NCBI GenBank assembly: GCA_036507075.1
Contig: DASXQR010000003.1
Location: forward strand, 43,232 to 107,231
Origin: Acidobacteriota bacterium
GTDB taxonomy: Bacteria; Acidobacteriota; UBA6911; JACQSX01
DNA: 64,000 bases
Direction: 5' to 3'
Below, in pieces: positions 3,130-63,913 of this stretch. Each line of letters begins with the position of its first letter. Position 1 is the first letter of the stretch. Both the position numbers and the translations under genes were made by a program. The notes under the pieces were generated by a model. That model did not search any database. It was given only the letters and a program-made list of their open reading frames with translations, and was not told where the DNA came from.

Positions 3130-3804
3130 ATGCCGTTTCTGAAAGTTCGGAACCTGAATAAGAGCTACCCTTCCGGACGCACACAGCTGCATGTGTTGCG
3201 CGACCTGTCGCTGGACGTGGAAAAGGGGGATTTGATCGCCGTTTTAGGGGCATCCGGCTCGGGCAAGAGCACTCTGCTGCATATGATCGGTGGAATGGAA
3301 TGTCCCGATTCCGGCTCCATTCAATATGGTGATCTGGAACTGGTCTCACTCGCTCGAGAAGAGCTTGCCCGCTTTCGAAATTCCAGAGTTGGATTCATTT
3401 TTCAATTTCACCACCTGCTGCCTGAATTCAGCGCGCTTGAGAATGTGATGTTTCCGTTGTTGATTGGCAGGCAACCGGCGGCGCGCTGCCGTTCACTGGC
3501 GATGGAGCTGCTCGCCGCGGTGGGATTGTCAGAACGGCAGAGTCACAAACCGGGAGAATTGTCGGGTGGAGAACAGCAGCGGGTGGCCATCGCTCGGGCG
3601 CTGGTGGGGAGTCCCGATATCGTGCTGGCGGATGAGCCGACCGGCAACCTGGATGCGCACACGGCCGAGTCGGTGCACCTGTTGCTGCAGCAACTCCATC
3701 AGCAAAGGCAGTTCACCGCCATCGTGGTGACCCATAATCCGGCCCTGGCTGAGATCTGCCGGGCGAGGAAATACATGCGAGACGGGCAACTTGTTGATCC
3801 CTAG
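3130..3804 (+). CDS. lolD: Lipoprotein-releasing ABC transporter ATP-binding protein LolD
   Basis: Walker [20 protein letters not shown]olD motif, [18 protein letters not shown]. Confidence 0.92.
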
Positions 3805-3911
3805 GGCATCTTAATGCGTACGGACTCGAACGGAGATGAAAATAGTTTTCTAAGTTCGCTGAAACCAAGCGTTAAATTGAATTTAAGGGTCATTTCTGGT
3901 ACAAAAGGACC

Positions 3912-6359
3912 ATGTTTGAGAAATACACGGAGAAGGCGCGGCGCGTGATCTTTTTTGCGCGCTATGAGGCCAGCCAGTTCGGAAGCCGTTACATTGAAAC
4001 CGAACATATTCTGCTGGGTCTGATCCGTGAGGACAAGGCGCTCACCAGCCGATTTTTCCCGCGAGCTGAGTCCACCATCGAAACCATCCGAAAAGAGATT
4101 GAGGGACGCACCGTCATACACGACAAGGTCTCTACCTCCGTAGAGCTGCCTTTGAGTGATGAGTCAAAACGCGTTCTCCAGTACGCCAACGAGGAATCAG
4201 AACGGCTCCTCTGCAACTACATCGGGACCGAGCACATTCTCCTGGGGCTTCTGAGAGAAGAAAAATCAGTGGCTGCGGAAATCCTCCATGAAAAAGGCTT
4301 GCGCCTGGCCAAGGTACGTGAGGAAATCGCCGGCGCTACCACCGAGAAACAAAGCAATCCGAAGAGCAAGGACAGTCTCATCCTGGCCGAGTTCAGCCGG
4401 GATCTGACCGATGCGGCCTCCAACCGGACGCTGGACCCGCTGGTGGGACGCGAGCGAGAAATTGAAAGAGTGATCCAGATCCTGTGCCGAAGAACCAAGA
4501 ACAATCCCGTCCTGATCGGGGAACCAGGGGTGGGTAAGACAGCCATTGTTGAAGGTCTGGCTCAGAAGATCGTGCAGGGCGAAGTTCCCAGCATGCTGCT
4601 GGACAAGCGGATCCTGGCGCTGGACATTTCCCTGATCGTCGCAGGAACGAAATATCGCGGGCAGTTTGAAGAGCGTCTCAAGGCGATCATGAAGGAATTG
4701 CTGGAGAATCCGAACTTCATCATCTTTATAGATGAGCTGCACACGCTGGTGGGAGCAGGTTCCGCCGAAGGCTCTCTTGACGCCGCCAACATCCTGAAAC
4801 CGGCCCTGTCGCGCGGGGAATTGCAGTGCGTCGGGGCCACCACTCCTTATGAATACCGCCGCTCCATTGAAAAGGATCGCTCTCTGGAACGCCGCTTCCA
4901 GGCAGTGAAAGTCAATCCACCGACCGAAGCGGAGACTATCGAAATCATCCGGGGCATCAGGGATCGGTACGAATCGTTTCACCAGGTTTCCTACATCGAG
5001 GACGCGATTACTTCGTCGGTGCTGCAGTCGAATCGCTATATTCCGGACCGTTTTCTGCCCGACAAGGCCATCGACGTGCTTGACGAGGCAGGAGCAAGGG
5101 TCAAGCTTCGCAGCACGGCCGTCCCCGACGAAGTGATCAATCTGCAGAAGAAAATCAAAGTCATCATGGGGCGGATTGAAACCGCCATTTCGCTGAAGGA
5201 ATTCGAGAAAGCTGCCAAGTACAAGGACGAAGAACTTCTGGAGCGCGAAAACCTGCAGATCATCAAGGAGCGCTGGAAACTGCGCAACAAGCTTCCCATC
5301 CAGGTAACGCGCGATGATATCGATGACGTGATCTCGCGATGGACCGGCATCCCCGTCAACTCTTTGAAGGAAGAAGAATCGCAGAAGCTGCTCCGCATGG
5401 AAGACGAGCTGCACAGGCGCATCGTGAGCCAGAAAAAAGCGATTTCCGCGCTGGCCCGGGCCATCCGTCGCAGCCGCGCCGGCATGAAGAATCCCAACCG
5501 CCCGGTCGGGTCGTTCCTGTTTCTGGGACCGACGGGCGTGGGAAAGACAGAAGTGGCCAAGGGCTTGACGGAATTTCTCTTTGGAAGCGAGAAGGCCCTG
5601 GTGCGCTTCGACATGTCCGAGTATATGGAGAAGCACTCGGTCTCAAAACTGATCGGATCTCCTCCCGGCTATGTCGGTCATGAAGAAGGCGGGCAACTGA
5701 CCGAAAGGATCAAGCGCAATCCCTATTCGGTTCTGCTGTTGGACGAAATCGAAAAGGCGCACGCCGACATCTTCAATATCCTGTTGCAGGTGTTCGAAGA
5801 CGGCCAGCTTACCGATTCGCACGGAAATCAGATCGATTTCAAGAATACTATCATCATAATGACGTCAAACATCGGAGCCCGTTACCTGTCGCAAAAAGGC
5901 GCTCTGGGATTCCAGGCTTCCGTCGATAAGAGCCAGCAGAAAGTTCACGATCTGGTGCTCAATGAAGTAAAGCATCTGTTTAATCCGGAATTCCTCAACC
6001 GTCTGGACGAAATCATCATTTTTGACTCCCTCACCGACGAGGATCTGCGCCAGATTGTCGATCTGCTTATGATGCAGGTGAACAAGAACCTGGAGCAGAA
6101 GAACATTCGCATCCGGCTCGAGTCGGATGTGGCGGAATGGATCATTTCGCAGACCTGCAAGGATCGATCTTATGGCGCCCGGCCGCTTCGCCGCGCCATC
6201 CAGAAATACATCGAAGACCCCGTATCCGAGCTGCTGATTCAGGGTAAGTTGAACCGCGACCGCACCATATCCATCTATATGAGGGATGGGCAATTGTTCT
6301 ATCGTCCCACAGACGCCGAAGCAGACCAGGGGATGCAACTGCAGGTCAGCGTCTTCTGA
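3912..6359 (+). CDS. clpC: ATP-dependent Clp protease ATP-binding subunit ClpC
   Basis: Clp N-repeats; two AAA+ modules ([16 protein letters not shown]); UVR-like middle domain. Confidence 0.93.
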
Positions 6360-51906: not shown

Positions 51907-52414
51907 GGAGGCAGGAGGCAGGAGGCGGAAGGCAGAAGGCGGAAGGCGGAAGGCGGAAGGCGGAAGGCGGAAGGCAGGAGGCAGGGGGCAGGGGGCAGGA
52001 GGCAGCAGGCAGGAGGCAGCAGGCAGGAGCGTGATCGACGCCATCAGTACCGCGATCCGTCATCGACGCCATCAGTACCGCGATCCGTTAGGTCGCGGCG
52101 GGGAATGTAAGTCGACTCGTTGCCACCGCTGGATCGAAGGCAGAAGGCGGAAGGCGGAAGGCGGAAGGTAGGAAGCAGGAGGCAGGAAGCAGGAGGCAGG
52201 AGGCAGGGGGCAGGAGCGTGATCGACGCCATCAGTACCGCGATCCGTTAGGTCGCGGCGGGGACTGTAAGTCGACTCGTTGCCACCGCTGGATCGAAGGC
52301 AGAAGGCGGAAGGCAGAAGGCAGAAGGCAGAAGGCGGACACTGAAAGACTGAAAGACTGAAAGACTGAAAGACTGAAAGACTAACGACGAACCACAGACT
52401 ACGGACCACTGACT
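51907..52414. repeat. Composite insert: GGCAGGA/GGCGGAA arrays, copies of a ~79-bp element, ACTGAAAG octamers
   Basis: Element copies at 52034 (partial), 52062 and 52221; octamers about 52340-52382. Confidence 0.9.
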
Positions 52415-52420
52415 ATTCCA

Positions 52421-52963
52421 ATGCCCATAACAAGACCGGCTACTTACGGGTTGATGGCAGAATTCGAAGATGCTTTGAGCCTTGTTGCTGCGGCGCGGCG
52501 CGCCTACCAGGAGGGCTATCGAAGACTGGACGCGTTTTCACCCTTTCCCATTGAGGAGTTGGCCGAGGCGATCGGATTCCACCGCAATAACTTGCCGATG
52601 ATCGTTTTGATCGGCGGCGTGCTGGGATGCGCAGGCGGGTATCTGCTTCAATATTATGTTTCCGTGATCGCGTATCCTTTAAACGTCGGTGGAAAACCGT
52701 TACACAGCTGGCCATCTTTTATTCCCGTCACGTTCGAGACGACGGTTCTCGTGGCAGCGCTGGCGGCTGTGCTTGGGATGCTGGCGCTAAACGGGCTGCC
52801 CTTGCCTTACCACCCTGTTTTCAACGTCAAAGACTTCGAAAGAGCGACAAGGGATCGATTTTTCCTGTTAATTGAATCGCTGGATCCAAGGTTCGATCGC
52901 GAGCAGACCGCGGCATTTTTGAGAAGCCTGAATCCTGTTCAGGTCTCCGATGTTGACCACTGA
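52421..52963 (+). CDS. actD: ACIII subunit D (DUF3341)
   Basis: YGLMAEF, DAFSPFPI, GGKPLHSWPSFIPVTFE. Confidence 0.9.
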   Translation: MPITRPATYGLMAEFEDALSLVAAARRAYQEGYRRLDAFSPFPIEELAEAIGFHRNNLPMIVLIGGVLGCAGGYLLQYYVSVIAYPLNVGGKPLHSWPSFIPVTFETTVLVAALAAVLGMLALNGLPLPYHPVFNVKDFERATRDRFFLLIESLDPRFDREQTAAFLRSLNPVQVSDVDH

Positions 52964-53076
52964 GGACCAAGCGGAATGCGGAATGGGGAATGCGGAATGC
53001 GGAATGGGGAATGCGGAACGATGAGCCTTGAAGCTGAGCGAAAGGGAAAGAGTAAGACTCTACGGGCCTTGGGCAA

Positions 53077-53928
53077 ATGAAACTAAGTCACAAATACCTG
53101 ATCGAAACAGAAATTACCCGGGTGAATCGAAGAGTGGATCAACCTCTTTCCCCTCATTCCTCCGGTCCCGCTCCCACTCTCCCACTCTCCCGCTCTCCCA
53201 CTCTCCCACTCTCCCACTCTCCCACTCGCCCACTCGCCCGCTCTCTCGCTCTCTCGCTCTCCCGCTTCCTGCTTCGCTGTATCTGCGCAGCTTTATGCCT
53301 GGCCGTCGCGGGCTGTCGCCGCGACATGCAGGACACGCCCCGGTATGAGGCTTATGAGGCAAGCCCGTTCTTTAAGGACGGCCTTTCTTCACGATCCCTC
53401 GTGCCGGGCACGATTCCTCGCGGATATCTTAAAGAGGATCCGGCATTCTATTTCGGAAAATTGGCAGGCGGCGCAGCGCCTGCGCGCGTCCGCACCCCCA
53501 TATTGACCGCCAGTGGGACTGCGACCACTGCTTTGCCGGAGTCGGACCTGATCACCCGGATTCCGCTTTCCGTCACAAGGCCGTTATTGGATCGTGGACA
53601 GGATCGCTTTGACATTTACTGCGCCCCCTGCCATGGGCGTGTCGGTGACGGTGGAGGAATGATCGCGCGTCGAGGTTTTCGTCCGCCTCCCACATTTCAC
53701 AGTGACCGGCTTCGGCAGGCTGCTGCAGGACACTTTTTTGACGTGATAACCAGCGGGTTCGGCGCCATGCCGGATTACGCCTCTCAATTGTCGCCGCAGG
53801 ATCGATGGGGGGTGATTGCCTATATCCGGGCGCTCCAGTTGAGCCAATGGGCTTCAGTTTCAGACGTTCCGGAGGAAGAGCGGCGCAAGCTGGAGATCGA
53901 TCGGCAAGGACCAAAGGTCGCCCGGTGA
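53077..53928 (+). CDS. actE: ACIII monoheme cytochrome c lipoprotein
   Basis: Lipobox AVAGC, DMQDTP, CAPCHG; N-terminus contains an octamer array. Confidence 0.88.
   Translation: MKLSHKYLIETEITRVNRRVDQPLSPHSSGPAPTLPLSRSPTLPLSHSPTRPLARSLALSLSRFLLRCICAALCLAVAGCRRDMQDTPRYEAYEASPFFKDGLSSRSLVPGTIPRGYLKEDPAFYFGKLAGGAAPARVRTPILTASGTATTALPESDLITRIPLSVTRPLLDRGQDRFDIYCAPCHGRVGDGGGMIARRGFRPPPTFHSDRLRQAAAGHFFDVITSGFGAMPDYASQLSPQDRWGVIAYIRALQLSQWASVSDVPEEERRKLEIDRQGPKVAR
53171..53266 (+). repeat. 12 x CTCCCACT-type octamer array, in frame within the actE 5' end
   Basis: Counted 12 degenerate units = 96 nt. Confidence 0.9.
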
Positions 53929-54004
53929 GAAGGCGGAAGGCGGAAGGCAGAAGGCAAGGAGCAGGAGGCAGAAGGCAGAAGGCGGAAGGCAGGCAGGAGG
54001 GTCG

Positions 54005-54158: not shown

Positions 54159-54269
54159 AAGGAGGAGGCGGCAGGAGGCAGGGAGGCAGGCGGCAGGAGG
54201 CAGGGAGGACTATGAAGGGGACGGAACGGTTATGAAGGAGAAGGAAGGGGAGGAGCGGAGGGCTGGGTT

Positions 54270-55484
54270 ATGAAGGAGGCTGACGCGTTTGTAGATGAAC
54301 TTACTCAGCCGCTCTCCACAATCTTTCCGGAGGTGGCAGGCATCCGCCGCAATGCCCTGACTGCCGGAGGCGCGTCGCTGATGTTGAGCGCCATCGGATG
54401 GTTCTTCAATCCCGTTCAGTTTTATCGGTCCTATTTGATCGCTGCCATCTTCTGGCTTGGAGTGGGCCTGGGTTGCCTCTCTATATTAATGGTGCAGTAT
54501 CTTTCGGGAGGCGCGTGGGGACTTGTCATCCGCAGGTTGCTTGAAGCGGGCGCCGGGACTTTGCGGGTAGTTCCCGCTTTGTTTGTTCCACTGGTCTTCG
54601 GCATTCATCAGCTTTACACCTGGTCGCGTGCCGAAGAAGTAAAGCACAGCGAAGTGCTGCAGCAGAAAACCGCGTATCTCAACCTGCCGTTTTTTTCCCT
54701 TAGGGCGCTGATCTATTTTGCCGCGTGGTTTGTTCTCGCACATCTCTTTCAGAATTGGTCGCTGGAACAGGATCGCACCGCGGATCGCGCCATTTTGCGC
54801 CGCCTCCAGCTTTTCAGCGGCCCCGGGTTGGTTCTCATCGCTCTCACCGTTACTTTTGCCTCAGTGGACTGGATCATGTCGCTGGACCCGAAATGGTTCT
54901 CCACGATCTTCGGATTGCTGCTGGCAGCTACGCAGGCCTTGAGCGCTTTTGCATTCGTGGTGGCGCTGTGTGTGTGGCTGCACCGGCGGGGACCGCTGGC
55001 GATGCTTTCGGCGGAACACTTTCAGGACTTTGGGAAGCTTCTTCTCGCGTTTGTGATGGTCTGGGCTTATCTTGGGTTTTCGCAGTTTCTGGTCATCTGG
55101 TCTGGAAATTTGCCCGAAGAGATACCCTGGTATCTGCGCCGGCTGCACGGAGGCTGGAATTGGATGGCGCTGCTGCTGGTTGTTTTCCAATTCGTGCTTC
55201 CCTTTCTCGTTCTGCTTTCGCGTGATCTGAAGCGCAACCCGCGCCTGCTCGGTTTGGTGGCGGGATGGGTGTTCCTAATGAGTTTTGTCCATCTTTTCTG
55301 GATGATCGCCCCTGAATTTCATCATCAAGGCTTTTATCTTCACTGGATGGATGTGACAACACTGGCGGGAGTGGGTGGTCTTTGGTTTGGTTACTTTTTG
55401 ACGCAACTGGGGCGCGCGCCGCTCCTGCCGATTCACGATCCCTACCTGGCAGAGGCGCTCAGTCATGGCGCGAGCCACGCGTAA
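54270..55484 (+). CDS. actF: ACIII membrane subunit F
   Basis: Polytopic; DWIMSLDPKWFSTIFG, FSQFLVIWSGNLPEE. Confidence 0.88.
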   Translation: MKEADAFVDELTQPLSTIFPEVAGIRRNALTAGGASLMLSAIGWFFNPVQFYRSYLIAAIFWLGVGLGCLSILMVQYLSGGAWGLVIRRLLEAGAGTLRVVPALFVPLVFGIHQLYTWSRAEEVKHSEVLQQKTAYLNLPFFSLRALIYFAAWFVLAHLFQNWSLEQDRTADRAILRRLQLFSGPGLVLIALTVTFASVDWIMSLDPKWFSTIFGLLLAATQALSAFAFVVALCVWLHRRGPLAMLSAEHFQDFGKLLLAFVMVWAYLGFSQFLVIWSGNLPEEIPWYLRRLHGGWNWMALLLVVFQFVLPFLVLLSRDLKRNPRLLGLVAGWVFLMSFVHLFWMIAPEFHHQGFYLHWMDVTTLAGVGGLWFGYFLTQLGRAPLLPIHDPYLAEALSHGASHA

Positions 55485-55691: not shown

Positions 55692-56204
55692 ATGAGCCAC
55701 TCAGAAGAGACCCCTGATACCAGCCACATCCAGAACCCGGAAGTTTCTCACGAGCGGAGTGATGTAAGCGTTCGCGGCATCCTGATTTTTGGCGTGGGCC
55801 TGATCATTTCGGCGGTAGTGATTCATCTGCTGCTGTGGTGGTTGATGATTTTCTTTGAGCATCGGGAAATCGCAAAGGAGCCCAAGGCATCACCTATGGC
55901 AGGCGGGCGACAGCGCTTGCCGCCCGAACCGCGCCTGCAACTGGCGCCGGGGCACGAAGTACACCCTGACATTGAAATGAAGAAGCTTCTTGATAAAGAG
56001 CGGGAAGTGCTTGGCAGTTACGGTTGGATTGATCCCGCCTCCGGCGTGGTGAGAGTCCCGATCGAGCGCGCCAAGGATTTGATTGCACAGCGCGGAATAC
56101 GGGAAGGCGGAAGGCAGAAAGCAGAAGGCGGGAGGGAGAAAGCGGAAGGCGGAAGGCAGAAAGCGGAAGGCGGAAGGCAGAAAGCGGAAGGTAAAAAATT
56201 CTAA
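55692..56204 (+). CDS. actG: ACIII subunit G-like single-TM protein
   Basis: HERSDV, one TM, PPEPRLQ, YGWID..VPIERA; position between actF and sco; repeat-encoded tail. Confidence 0.72.
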   Translation: MSHSEETPDTSHIQNPEVSHERSDVSVRGILIFGVGLIISAVVIHLLLWWLMIFFEHREIAKEPKASPMAGGRQRLPPEPRLQLAPGHEVHPDIEMKKLLDKEREVLGSYGWIDPASGVVRVPIERAKDLIAQRGIREGGRQKAEGGREKAEGGRQKAEGGRQKAEGKKF

Positions 56205-56205
56205 A

Positions 56206-57141
56206 ATGCCTGTCGATTGCAGAATGAGGTTTCGGAAGCCTGGTGCCTTGGTGGTAAGAAAAAATGGAACCACCAAGGCACCAAGCCAGGTTTTCCACCT
56301 GGGTGCCGGAAACGGCTGTGTGAAGAGTTACTCAAGGGCGTGGTTAACTTTGATTCTCATTGCCGTCGTGTCCGCGTCGCTTCGCGCCCAGACAGGACTT
56401 CCACCGATGCTGCGCCAGGTGGGAATCCAACAGAGATTGGGCGGACAGATTCCCCTCGATCTGCGCTTTCGGAACGAGCGAAATGAAGTTGTCAGAATTG
56501 GCGACTACTTTGGCGAGCGCCCCGTAGTTCTGGCGCTTGTTTACTACGAATGCCCGATGCTCTGTACTCAGGTCTTGAACGGCCTGGCCGGCGCGCTCAG
56601 AGCGGTGCCGATGGAACCAGGCGAGCAGTTCGACATTCTGGCAATCAGCTTCAACGCGAAGGAAACAGCGGAACTTGCCGCCCGTAAAAAAGAGACCTAC
56701 CTGGAACGATACGGTCGGGCCAGTGCCGGAAAAGGCTGGCATTTTCTTACCGGGGACCAGGAGCCTATCGATCGGCTCGCAGGGTCGGTCGGTTTTCGAT
56801 ACTCCTATGATCCGGCCAGCAGGCAGTTTGCCCATGCCAGCGGCATTATGGTTCTCACTCCCGACGGAAAAATCAGCCGTTACCTTCCGGGAATTGAATA
56901 CGACCCGCGCGATCTGAAGCTGGCGCTGCTGGAAGCATCGGGCGGGCGTATCGGTTCACCTGCCGACCGGCTGCTGCTTTACTGTTACCAGTATGATCCA
57001 GCCACCGGCAAATATGGTCCGGTAATAATGAACCTGGTAAGGCTTTCCGCGATCGCCACAGTGCTGGCGCTCGCCGCATTGATGCTGCTGCTCCGCCGTA
57101 AAAGCGCCCAGCCGGCAGATTCTGAATTCGGGGGAAACTGA
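56206..57141 (+). CDS. sco: SCO family copper chaperone
   Basis: YYECPMLC, WHFLTG, FAHASG; start uncertain. Confidence 0.9.
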   Translation: MPVDCRMRFRKPGALVVRKNGTTKAPSQVFHLGAGNGCVKSYSRAWLTLILIAVVSASLRAQTGLPPMLRQVGIQQRLGGQIPLDLRFRNERNEVVRIGDYFGERPVVLALVYYECPMLCTQVLNGLAGALRAVPMEPGEQFDILAISFNAKETAELAARKKETYLERYGRASAGKGWHFLTGDQEPIDRLAGSVGFRYSYDPASRQFAHASGIMVLTPDGKISRYLPGIEYDPRDLKLALLEASGGRIGSPADRLLLYCYQYDPATGKYGPVIMNLVRLSAIATVLALAALMLLLRRKSAQPADSEFGGN

Positions 57142-59774: not shown

Positions 59775-60135
59775 AGGCAGAAGGCAGAAGGCGGAAGGCG
59801 GAAAGCAGAAGGCAGAAGGCGGCAGGCGGAAGGCAGAAGGCAGGAGGCAGGAGGCAGGAGGCAGGAGGCAGAGGCAGGAGGCAGGAGGCAGGAGGAGGAG
59901 GCGTGGTCGACGCCATCAGTACCGCGATCCGCTAGGTCGCGGCGGGGAATGTAAGTCGACTCGTTACCACCACTGGATCGAAGGCGAACGGCGGAAGGCA
60001 GGAAGCGGGAGGCGGGAGGCGGGAGGCGGAAGACAGTTGAACAGAGCCGAGCGCGAAAGGTGGGAGTCGTAACTCGACACTCGTAACCCGAAACCCGATA
60101 ACCCGAAACTCGATAACCCGAAACCCGTAACTCGA
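59775..60135. repeat. Composite insert: GGCAGAA/GGCAGGA arrays, one ~79-bp element, GTAACCC arm
   Basis: Element at 59907-59984; cgtaacccgaaacccgataacccg at 60066-60135. Confidence 0.88.
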
Positions 60136-61832: not shown

Positions 61833-61851
61833 TTATATGGGAGCGTTGGTT

Positions 61852-62322
61852 ATGATCCGAATGAGTAAACAGACCGACTATGGGATCGTCCTGCTGACGC
61901 ACCTGGCGAGTACGCCTGACGCATCGTACAGTGCTCGGGAACTGGCTGCAGTGATGCATCTTCCGCTGCCCATGGTGAGCAAGATCCTAAAGCTGTTGAC
62001 CAGAGAGGGCTTGCTGTTTTCTTACCGGGGCCCATCGGGAGGTTACCGTCTGGCTCGGCAGCCAAACCAGATAACAGTGGCGGAAATGATCAATGCTTTG
62101 GAAGGGCCCTTTGCTTTCATGGAGTGCATTGAAACGCCGGGGACCTGCAGGCAGGAGTCATTTTGTCCGGTACGAGGCAATTGGTACACGATCAACAGTA
62201 CCGTGGTCAGGGCACTCCGTGGAATCACATTGTCGGATATGACGGGCACCATACCCGGTATGCCAGGAGCAGGCGCAAGTCCGCAGCATCCCGGCGGCGG
62301 ACAATTGCCGGTCATCGCGTAA
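61852..62322 (+). CDS. Rrf2 family SUF-system regulator
   Basis: [21 protein letters not shown], three Cys ([15 protein letters not shown]); upstream of sufB. Confidence 0.9.
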
Positions 62323-62464
62323 GCGTTTCACGTCCGGTGTTATATCCTGGTCGGCCCTCTGCAGATTCTGTTCTCTCGGGTCGCAGGTGCAGCGCCGTCG
62401 GCTGTTGCAGGGTTGCAGCGCGCAGCGGAAAAGTTATTTTTGTTATCGAGGATCTAATAACATC

Positions 62465-63913
62465 ATGCCTACAGAGACAAAGGAAATTCAGGAACTGGCA
62501 AACCAGGAGTACAAATACGGTTTTCACACCGACATCGAGACTGAATCGGTTCCGCCTGGTTTAAACGAAGAAATTATTCGCCTGATTTCAGAAAAGAAGA
62601 ACGAGCCTGAGTTCATGCTGGAATGGCGGTTGAAGGCATACCGCCACTGGCTGACGATGGAAGAGCCGAAGTGGGCGAATATTCGCTATCCCTCCATCGA
62701 TTACCAGAGCATCATTTATTATTCAGCCCCCAAATCGCGGGCCGACGGGCCCCAGAGCCTGGACGAGGTCGATCCAAAGCTGCTGGAAACCTACAAGAAG
62801 CTGGGCGTGCCGCTGGAAGAGCAGGCGCTCCTTGCGGGAGTCGCCATAGACGCCGTGTTCGACAGCGTCTCGGTTGCCACTACCTTCAAGGAAAAGCTGG
62901 CCGGGCTGGGAATTATTTTCTGCTCATTCTCTGAGGCGGTGCAGAACCATCCCGATCTGGTGAAAAAGTATCTCGGTTCGGTGGTTCCGTACAGCGATAA
63001 CTTCTTTGCCACGCTGAATTCGGCGGTTTTCACCGACGGCTCCTTCGCCTACATTCCCAAAGGTGTGCGCTGTCCGATGGAGCTTTCCACCTACTTCCGT
63101 ATTAACGCGGCAAAAACGGGGCAGTTTGAACGGACTTTGATCATCGCCGAGGAAGGCAGTTACGTCAGCTATCTTGAAGGATGCACCGCCCCGATGCGAG
63201 ACGAAAACCAGCTCCACGCAGCCGTTGTCGAGCTGGTGGCGCTCGATGATGCTCAAATCAAGTATTCCACAATCCAGAACTGGTACCCGGGGGACAACGA
63301 AGGAAAGGGTGGAATTTACAACTTTGTCACCAAGCGCGGCAAGTGTCTGGGTGTGAACTCAAAGATCTCCTGGACTCAGGTGGAAACCGGTTCGGCGATC
63401 ACCTGGAAATATCCGAGCTGCATTTTGCAGGGGGACAACTCCATTGGTGAGTTCTATTCGGTCGCGCTGACCAAGGCAAGACAGCAGGCCGACACGGGCA
63501 CCAAGATGATCCACATTGGAAAGAACACGCGCAGCACCATCGTTGCGAAAGGAATATCGGCCGGCCATGGACAGAACACGTACCGCGGGCTGGTTAAGAT
63601 CCTCAAGGGAGCTGCCGGTGCCCGCAATTACACACAATGTGATTCGATGCTGATCGGTGATAAGTGCGGAGCGCACACGTTTCCCTACATCGAAATCAAG
63701 AACAGCACCGCGCACATGGAACATGAAGCTTCCACTTCGAAGATCGGAGAGGATCAGATTTTCTATCTGAAGCAGAGGGGTTTGTCCGCCGAGGATGCCG
63801 TGTCGATGATCGTGAACGGTTTCTGTAAAAAGGTCTTCAAGGAGCTGCCGATGGAGTTTGCTGTTGAGGCGCAAAAACTTCTCAGCGTAAGTCTTGAAGG
63901 CAGTGTTGGGTAG
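62465..63913 (+). CDS. sufB: Fe-S cluster assembly protein SufB
   Basis: [33 protein letters not shown] end; GAGG SD. Confidence 0.97.

Follow-up and report, generated by a model that had tools for sequence, protein, structure and literature searches.

The actD–actE junction analysed here is best explained, with a probability of roughly 0.6, by the beheading of actE: an out-of-frame repeat insert has probably cut the gene off from its original start inside actD, translation would begin anew at a start within the insert, and the two ATGA overlaps found there would be a by-product. Beside this stands a more robust result from the relatives, in which insert DNA at the same junction appears to have been absorbed repeatedly, in frame, into the signal peptide of ActE. 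An earlier sequence-only reading of the window (a stretch of 64,000 nucleotides from an Acidobacteriota bacterium) had proposed that ribosomes are handed across the insert by a relay of mini-ORFs, and that inserts may be tolerated only where coupling has been restored, unless it is the insertion process itself that regenerates it.

The junction belongs to a cluster for alternative complex III and cytochrome oxidase, with QrcA/C-like, DsrP-like, CoxB and CoxA-family matches, and its parts from actD through actE lie on the + strand. The gene actD (52421..52963) encodes alternative complex III subunit D (Pfam PF11821 ActD, E 2e-66), and most of the named relatives of ActD are from Acidobacteriota. 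It is followed by a gene for a monoheme cytochrome c lipoprotein (53077..53928; PF13442, E 4e-14), which appears intact in the Pfam scan and stands in the same gene order as in relatives; we take it to be actE from its position after actD, its domain and its lipobox. Gene order and homology also give what we take to be actF, coxC and coxD. After the oxidase genes, at 61837–63913 on the same strand, lie a gene for an Rrf2-family regulator and one that is presumably SufB-like.

The genome is 6.1 Mb long in 233 contigs and contains hundreds of 7-, 8- and 9-mer arrays. Its gene set of 4309 genes was derived with our own Markov model, to which actE, scoring 7.6 with the cut at 8, was added by hand. 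Contigs of X2, possibly the source of the DNA, match the window with zero differences over 52400–53000, 52989–53200 and 53198–53950; these pieces join only inside arrays, and the array copy number is therefore without independent confirmation. The X3 contigs provide a single 151-nt piece (53019–53169, one difference, depth 2), and the X4 and X5 contigs small pieces only.

Both mini-ORFs were reproduced at the positions originally given for them, as were the ATGA overlaps. ORF1 (52950..53024; 24 aa, MLTTEDQAECGMGNAECGMGNAER) runs from ATG 52950 to TGA 53022–53024. ORF2 (53021..53080; 19 aa, MSLEAERKGKSKTLRALGK) runs from ATG 53021 to TGA 53078–53080 and has an ATGA at each end; its TGA overlaps ATG 53077 of a 283-aa ORF (53077–53928). 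There are two ATGA within 52940–53320, and both belong to the chain. The three stop/start steps of the chain are −14, −4 and −4, and the description of an ATGA relay thus does not extend to the first hand-over, where the actD stop (52961–52963) and ATG 52950 form a 14-nt overlap. Nor does the chain bridge the whole insert: it crosses the initial 113 nt, but the remainder of the roughly 300 nt, with the CTCCCACT array, is translated as additional N-terminal sequence of ActE. Initiation at ATG 53077 is possible, but this codon is one among three candidates (53077, 53122 and 53134).

The distance from the actD stop to the lipobox Cys of ActE (53314) is 350 nt here, compared with 40–90 nt in many relatives. 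The insert begins with a purine-rich left arm (52971..53018), identified by TRF as 6.9 units of GCGGAAT/GGGGAAT heptamers with a perfect 21-nt period; the GCGGAAT-type unit is the commonest array family of the genome, with 338 TRF rows. Next comes a core (53019..53170) that is unique by blastn, tblastn and Pfam: with 53019–53165 as query against its own genome, the best other match in blastn and tblastn had an E value of 1.6. We considered the core as the remnant of a cargo gene and rejected this, given that it has no homolog in its own genome and no Pfam match. Within it, 53119..53137, which carries GTG 53134 and a GGGTGA site, is 74–79% complementary to the CTCCCACT array and looks like what decay has left of the left arm of an 8-mer element, and 53143..53160, with 9–11-nt matches to the left arm, is probably all that remains of the heptamer element's right arm. 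The pyrimidine-rich right arm (53171..53263; TRF and translation) consists of 11.6 units of CTCCCACT octamers and reads PTLPLSHS... in the actE frame. The two arms are of different families, and the partner of each is present only in decayed form, so the insert looks like two nested, worn elements. A search for a target-site duplication gave direct repeats between its two ends of 5 nt at most.

The insert folds weakly. The region 52930–53320 folds worse than 100 of 100 shuffles (z +2.2), 53040–53270 has a z of −1.1, and in a sample of 150 array spacers just 11% fold more weakly than the insert; there is therefore no strong hairpin for a relay to melt.

Elsewhere in the window, at 52030–52300 and 59900–59990, GAAGGCA-type arrays flank a non-tandem core of about 85 nt. 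The initial 25 nt of this core are found at 52035, 52063, 52222 and 59907 but at no other place in the genome, and the core may be either a local duplication or a nested element.

Comparison with relatives shows ATG 52950 to be the ancestral start of actE, 14 nt inside actD. The ancestral start region (52950..52955) comprises an ATG at −13 and a TTG at −10, counted from the end of the actD stop, and was recognised from the relatives and from codon bias. In a genome of the same family (L002), actE starts at the identical −13 position. The ATG at −13 is present in 20 of 82 junctions, 16 of which are open through to the lipobox Cys of ActE, and 39 of the 82 are open from either −13 or −10. The codon bias is pronounced: in junctions that are in phase and have no ATG, the Val codon that creates the TTG is GTT in 45/51 cases compared with 63/434 elsewhere in actD, and in in-phase junctions the Asp codon that creates the ATG is GAT in 21/25 compared with 83/239. 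Out-of-phase relatives have GAT in 3/7 and GTT in 5/18. The present genome keeps both the ATG at −13 and the TTG at −10 despite its out-of-frame actE. ORF1, described as a mini-ORF, is a real ORF, but its ATG is the old actE start, which had been overlooked; ORF1 is therefore the severed head of ActE. ORF1 has no Pfam match, and its exact peptide is absent from the protein collection.

A search for close relatives in which to follow the conservation of the ATGA overlaps gave none: among the six genomes searched of its order, this one alone represents the genus. The best relatives of ActD are 71–75% identical, and the next homologs of ActE, among the 120 matches listed, are at most 63% identical.

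A broad view of this junction comes from 274 actD–actE loci, which, with 12 that could not be used set aside, gave 251 distinct junctions. Reading from the overlapped start is open in frame in 210 of the 251 junctions, compared with 29 of 502 control frames, counts in which kin are non-independent and the control frames hold fewer starts. The same holds for the 75 junctions that bear arrays (64/75 open in frame from the old start, control 9/150) and for gaps of at least 100 nt (97/120, control 13/240). Of the 28 array inserts at actC–actD, none is in frame. Among 41 in-frame inserts at actD–actE there are 34 different unit consensuses, which points to many separate insertions. The leaders read from the old start in relatives have a median length of 45 residues and a maximum of 190. 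In these leaders the purine arm encodes basic or polar residues and the pyrimidine arm often hydrophobic ones; the array ends no more than 15 codons from the Cys in 26 of the 41, so that the right arm would supply part of the hydrophobic stretch. Within the present genome, in-frame reading from an ATG is found in front of 9 of 165 signal-peptide-like genes and at 1 of 479 other junctions, the signal-peptide-like class being a hydropathy heuristic that is partly circular. The actD–actE junction thus forms a natural series, with 251 versions of one overlap, 75 of them carrying repeat inserts built from a wide variety of units; the majority of these inserts are kept in frame, and a minority would be rescued by new starts. 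The location of the inserts in this series suggests that mobile repeats are tolerated in cleavable signal peptides.

Inserts of other kinds are also seen at actD–actE. Four junctions (L182, L177, L157 and L067) contain non-tandem palindromic elements of 240–556 nt that are fully open in the actE frame, with predicted leaders of up to 190 residues. At two more (L094 and L168) small genes have been inserted, each ending with a similar short ORF, which we take to resemble a CopG/antitoxin gene.

The out-of-frame relatives suggest how an insert that breaks the frame is usually survived. There are 23 with a gap of at least 90 nt that is not open, 21 of which were shuffled. In this small test, strict, overlap and relaxed chains numbered 2, 4 and 9 against expectations of 1.57, 3.33 and 8.41, and 12 of the 21 had no chain of any kind. 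Of the 22 out-of-frame relatives with an in-frame start, 10 had an SD-like site at least as strong as −7.8 kcal/mol, and a new start would be the usual rescue of out-of-frame inserts at this junction. The two relatives with strict chains (L085 and L279) lack a good SD (−4.1 and −4.0). One relative (L082) has a full cassette at actD–actE (3520–4050), consisting of GATCGAG arms and a PF05635 four-helix-bundle gene (E 1e-26), and no chain; another (L095) has what appears to be an internally deleted derivative of the cassette at the same junction. The pair may be a snapshot of how gene-less elements arise. PF05635 cargo is found at nine places in the present genome, and the insert in the window is Pfam-blank.

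For the new start of actE, the candidates differ in their ribosome binding sites. ATG 53077..53079 has no real Shine–Dalgarno sequence (−2.5 kcal/mol), and GTG 53134 has the SD-like GGGTGA at −9.5 kcal/mol, within the top 10% of 1606 starts and at a long spacing; these energies were calculated with the standard anti-SD tail, which may differ from the host's own 16S end. The SD-like site of GTG 53134 lies in the arm that is able to pair with the right arm. Downstream, a predicted hydrophobic stretch (53264..53316) ends in the lipobox V-A-G-C (53305–53316, Cys codon 53314), recognised by the pattern [LV][ASTVI][GAS]C, at which, according to PMC8689077, lipoprotein signal peptides are cleaved. 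The predicted leader of ActE is 79 residues long from 53077 and 60 from 53134, both beyond the typical 16–26. The 283-aa product from ATG 53077 is a recorded gene call; another recorded ActE call is of 200 aa, with the whole signal missing, and absorbed inserts would explain such mis-starts by gene callers.

A genome-wide count of ATGA chains at repeat-filled junctions against shuffled spacers, the check put forward with the relay, came out at chance frequency, the result that the sequence-only reading had itself named as refuting it. There are 2607 co-directional junctions, 680 of them with arrays, and the 649 with a spacer of at least 60 nt were tested. Strict ATGA chains occur at 7 of the 649 (5.3±2.1 in shuffles, the observed number being reached in 25 of 100), chains of any −4/−1 overlaps at 63 (55.0±6.5; 12 of 100), and chains under a relaxed rule at 182 (171.5±12.1; 20 of 100). 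With the elements kept intact, 651 junctions gave 3 strict chains, compared with 5 and 3 after frame slides of one and two bases and with 2.4±1.7 after spacer swaps. Links of the overlap type are missing altogether from 594–638 of the roughly 650 array junctions, depending on the rule (597 by the overlap rule, 638 by the strict one). Before signal-peptide-like genes that are not read in frame, overlap chains are found at 11 of 151 junctions, compared with 18 of 468 elsewhere (p 0.12). Two-step strict chains, such as the one in the window, are rarer: under a core-anchored rule the window site is the only one among 651 (swap null 0.3±0.5), and under an anchor-based rule there are 3 among 649.

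The cluster in the window gives the same picture, in that only one of its six long array-filled junctions has a chain. At actC–actD, actE–actF, coxA–coxC, coxC–coxD and coxD–rrf2 there are none, even by the relaxed rule, which speaks against the idea that inserts are tolerated only with coupling rebuilt. Among 81 relatives, 73 have actE and actF directly coupled, and the junction is array-free in all of them; in this genome the junction has an insert and a new strong SD at 54250–54272 (−10 kcal/mol). The companion idea, that the insertion process regenerates coupling, fails on the chance-level counts, both genome-wide and in the out-of-frame relatives.

We propose the following sequence of events. 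The gene actE was originally initiated, as the comparison shows, 14 or 11 nt inside the 3′ end of actD. Hairpin-type elements with 7–9-mer arms insert right after the actD stop, between the actE start and the signal peptide, and the inserts that survive are mostly in frame and extend the signal peptide, the frame being directly visible and cleavage presumed. Here a compound, decayed insert is out of frame, such that initiation at the old start would lead only to ORF1, a dead-end peptide of 24 aa, and ActE would be initiated anew inside the insert, at GTG 53134 with its SD-like site or at ATG 53077. Ribosomes leaving actD would presumably still restart at 52950 and some might trickle through ORF2, but most ActE would come from the new start, with the relay neither required nor built by the element.

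One observation that runs counter to this explanation is that a strict double chain is only 0.4–1.6% likely with the left arm fixed, at a junction under strong coupling pressure. Others are the absence of an SD at ATG 53077, the long spacing and possible pairing of the SD-like site of GTG 53134, the retention of both the ATG at −13 and the TTG at −10, the weak SDs of L085 and L279, and the slightly higher share of overlap chains before signal-peptide-like genes (p 0.12). In detail, a strict chain arose in 0.36% of 5000 local shuffles of the non-repeat core and in 1.6% with ATG 53077 fixed. It is possible, then, that a relay has been selected at this single site, with ribosomes passing from the old start through ORF1 and ORF2 to ATG 53077 as the main source of ActE and the overlaps fixed as compensation. 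Part of the proposed hand-over stands, since actD and actE seem constrained to stay linked (210/251), ATG 52950 is conserved, and −4 overlaps do couple; an exact chain sits on that conserved start, ATG 53077 has no SD of its own, the window holds the lone two-step strict chain by the core-anchored rule, and ribosome-delivering short ORFs have been proposed in MIRUs (PMC12548453) and integron attC/attI (PMC8876359). Against it, an excess of chains is absent in four nulls; shuffling the whole spacer (52964–53076) raises the chance of a strict chain to 10–16%, and any −4/−1 overlap chain appears locally in 20–51% of shuffles; the anchor-based rule finds two-step strict chains at 3 junctions; flux would be expected to fall over three serial restarts; and a competing start with an SD-like site is present. 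Because the low prior for selected relays has to be weighed against the local improbability, we regard a local relay as somewhat unlikely. Slightly more doubtful is its fuller version, a natural selected three-step relay in which a fossil start still feeds actE and two ATGA overlaps rescue an out-of-frame insert, as a rare second solution where elements are otherwise recycled into signal peptides across Acidobacteriota. A local relay, if real, would provide a natural example on which serial reinitiation could be tested.

A general rule, by which the element or selection restores coupling at each operon junction that is entered, in the manner of MIRUs, could appeal to the window junction and to isolated chains elsewhere (six other strict ones). 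It is already refuted by the chance-level counts, and we give it practically no weight: nearly all array junctions lack an overlap-type link, five of the six in the window's own cluster are chainless, as is the full cassette of L082 at actD–actE, and a unique core means that no built-in ORF is common to the copies. Mini-ORF chains elsewhere accordingly need a shuffled control. The junction might instead be an in-frame leader that was recently broken, by TGA 53022 and an array slip, in which case ActE would depend on read-through combined with a frameshift, be produced poorly, or be phase-variable. Relatives normally read the insert in frame, the frame of 52950 has a single stop up to 53348, and the gain or loss of 7- and 8-nt units shifts the frame. 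However, none of five tested unit gains or losses reopens the frame to ActE, and a broken leader would therefore need two separate events; the arrays are stop-free, so that one stop in a core of 50 codons is probably unremarkable, and actE appears intact. We consider this reading improbable, and the beheading of actE followed by a new start remains our preferred explanation.

Mycobacterial MIRUs insert at a start codon with target duplication. They are the closest known system, yet the insert in the window is not a member. As summarised in PMC12548453, MIRUs (Supply et al. 1997) are operon-junction repeats with a short ORF whose −4 overlap couples it to the next gene, an arrangement proposed to leave expression unchanged. 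A relay in the window, if it functions, would act in the manner of a MIRU or of an integron short ORF. The stop of ORF2 likewise overlaps ATG 53077, as a candidate start, at −4 spacing. In MIRUs, however, the ORF and the overlap are built into the element, whereas here ORF1 is the old head of a host gene and the sequence that holds ORF2 is unique; chains are not in excess in the element family, the duplicated ATGA target is absent, and the first array begins 21 nt past the old ATG rather than at the start codon, with no ATGA at its left end.

In tested E. coli pairs, −4 overlaps couple and an SD is not always required, according to PMC6728339; such termination–reinitiation pairs are real genes with −4 or −1 overlaps, and the window resembles them in its two ATGA (−4) overlaps. 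For three E. coli pairs PMC10666635 gives a drop in coupling of 80–100% at 38 nt spacing, which makes scanning across the insert unlikely. The integron attI ORF-11 and the attC short ORFs are described in PMC8876359 as non-functional and are proposed to carry ribosomes over a repeat hairpin to a weak start; they have their own SD or a stable stem-loop, unlike the weakly folding insert here. Inverted heptamer pairs in Xanthomonas and Nostoc are, according to PMC4692102, abundant between genes, enriched between co-directional ones and near stop codons; those GGGNATC G-quadruplex heptamers have four G-tracts, in contrast to the GCGGAAT/GGGGAAT unit and the octamer family of the window, and absorption into reading frames does not figure in the abstract of that study. 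In-frame repeats in signal peptides are on record as single in-silico cases (PMC2759123), whereas here many unrelated tandem-arm elements hit one junction repeatedly and the survivors are mostly in frame. The tandem-arm PF05635 cassette has a purine left arm and a complementary right arm; in the window insert the arms come from two families, each with a decayed partner. Titles and the openings of abstracts yielded no literature on tandem-arm cassettes or on their absorption into the ActE signal peptide.

A second case of absorption is found within the window at 56102–56206, where a 170-aa ORF (55692–56204) takes its C-terminal tail from the in-frame translation of a GGAAGGC array. The next gene, presumably SCO-like, is directly coupled at ATG 56206 and has a long leader before its signal-like stretch. 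Secreted-looking proteins on G000 contigs C48, C60, C121, C172, C217, C224, C225 and C226 have charged and hydrophobic signal parts that are apparently translated repeat arms.
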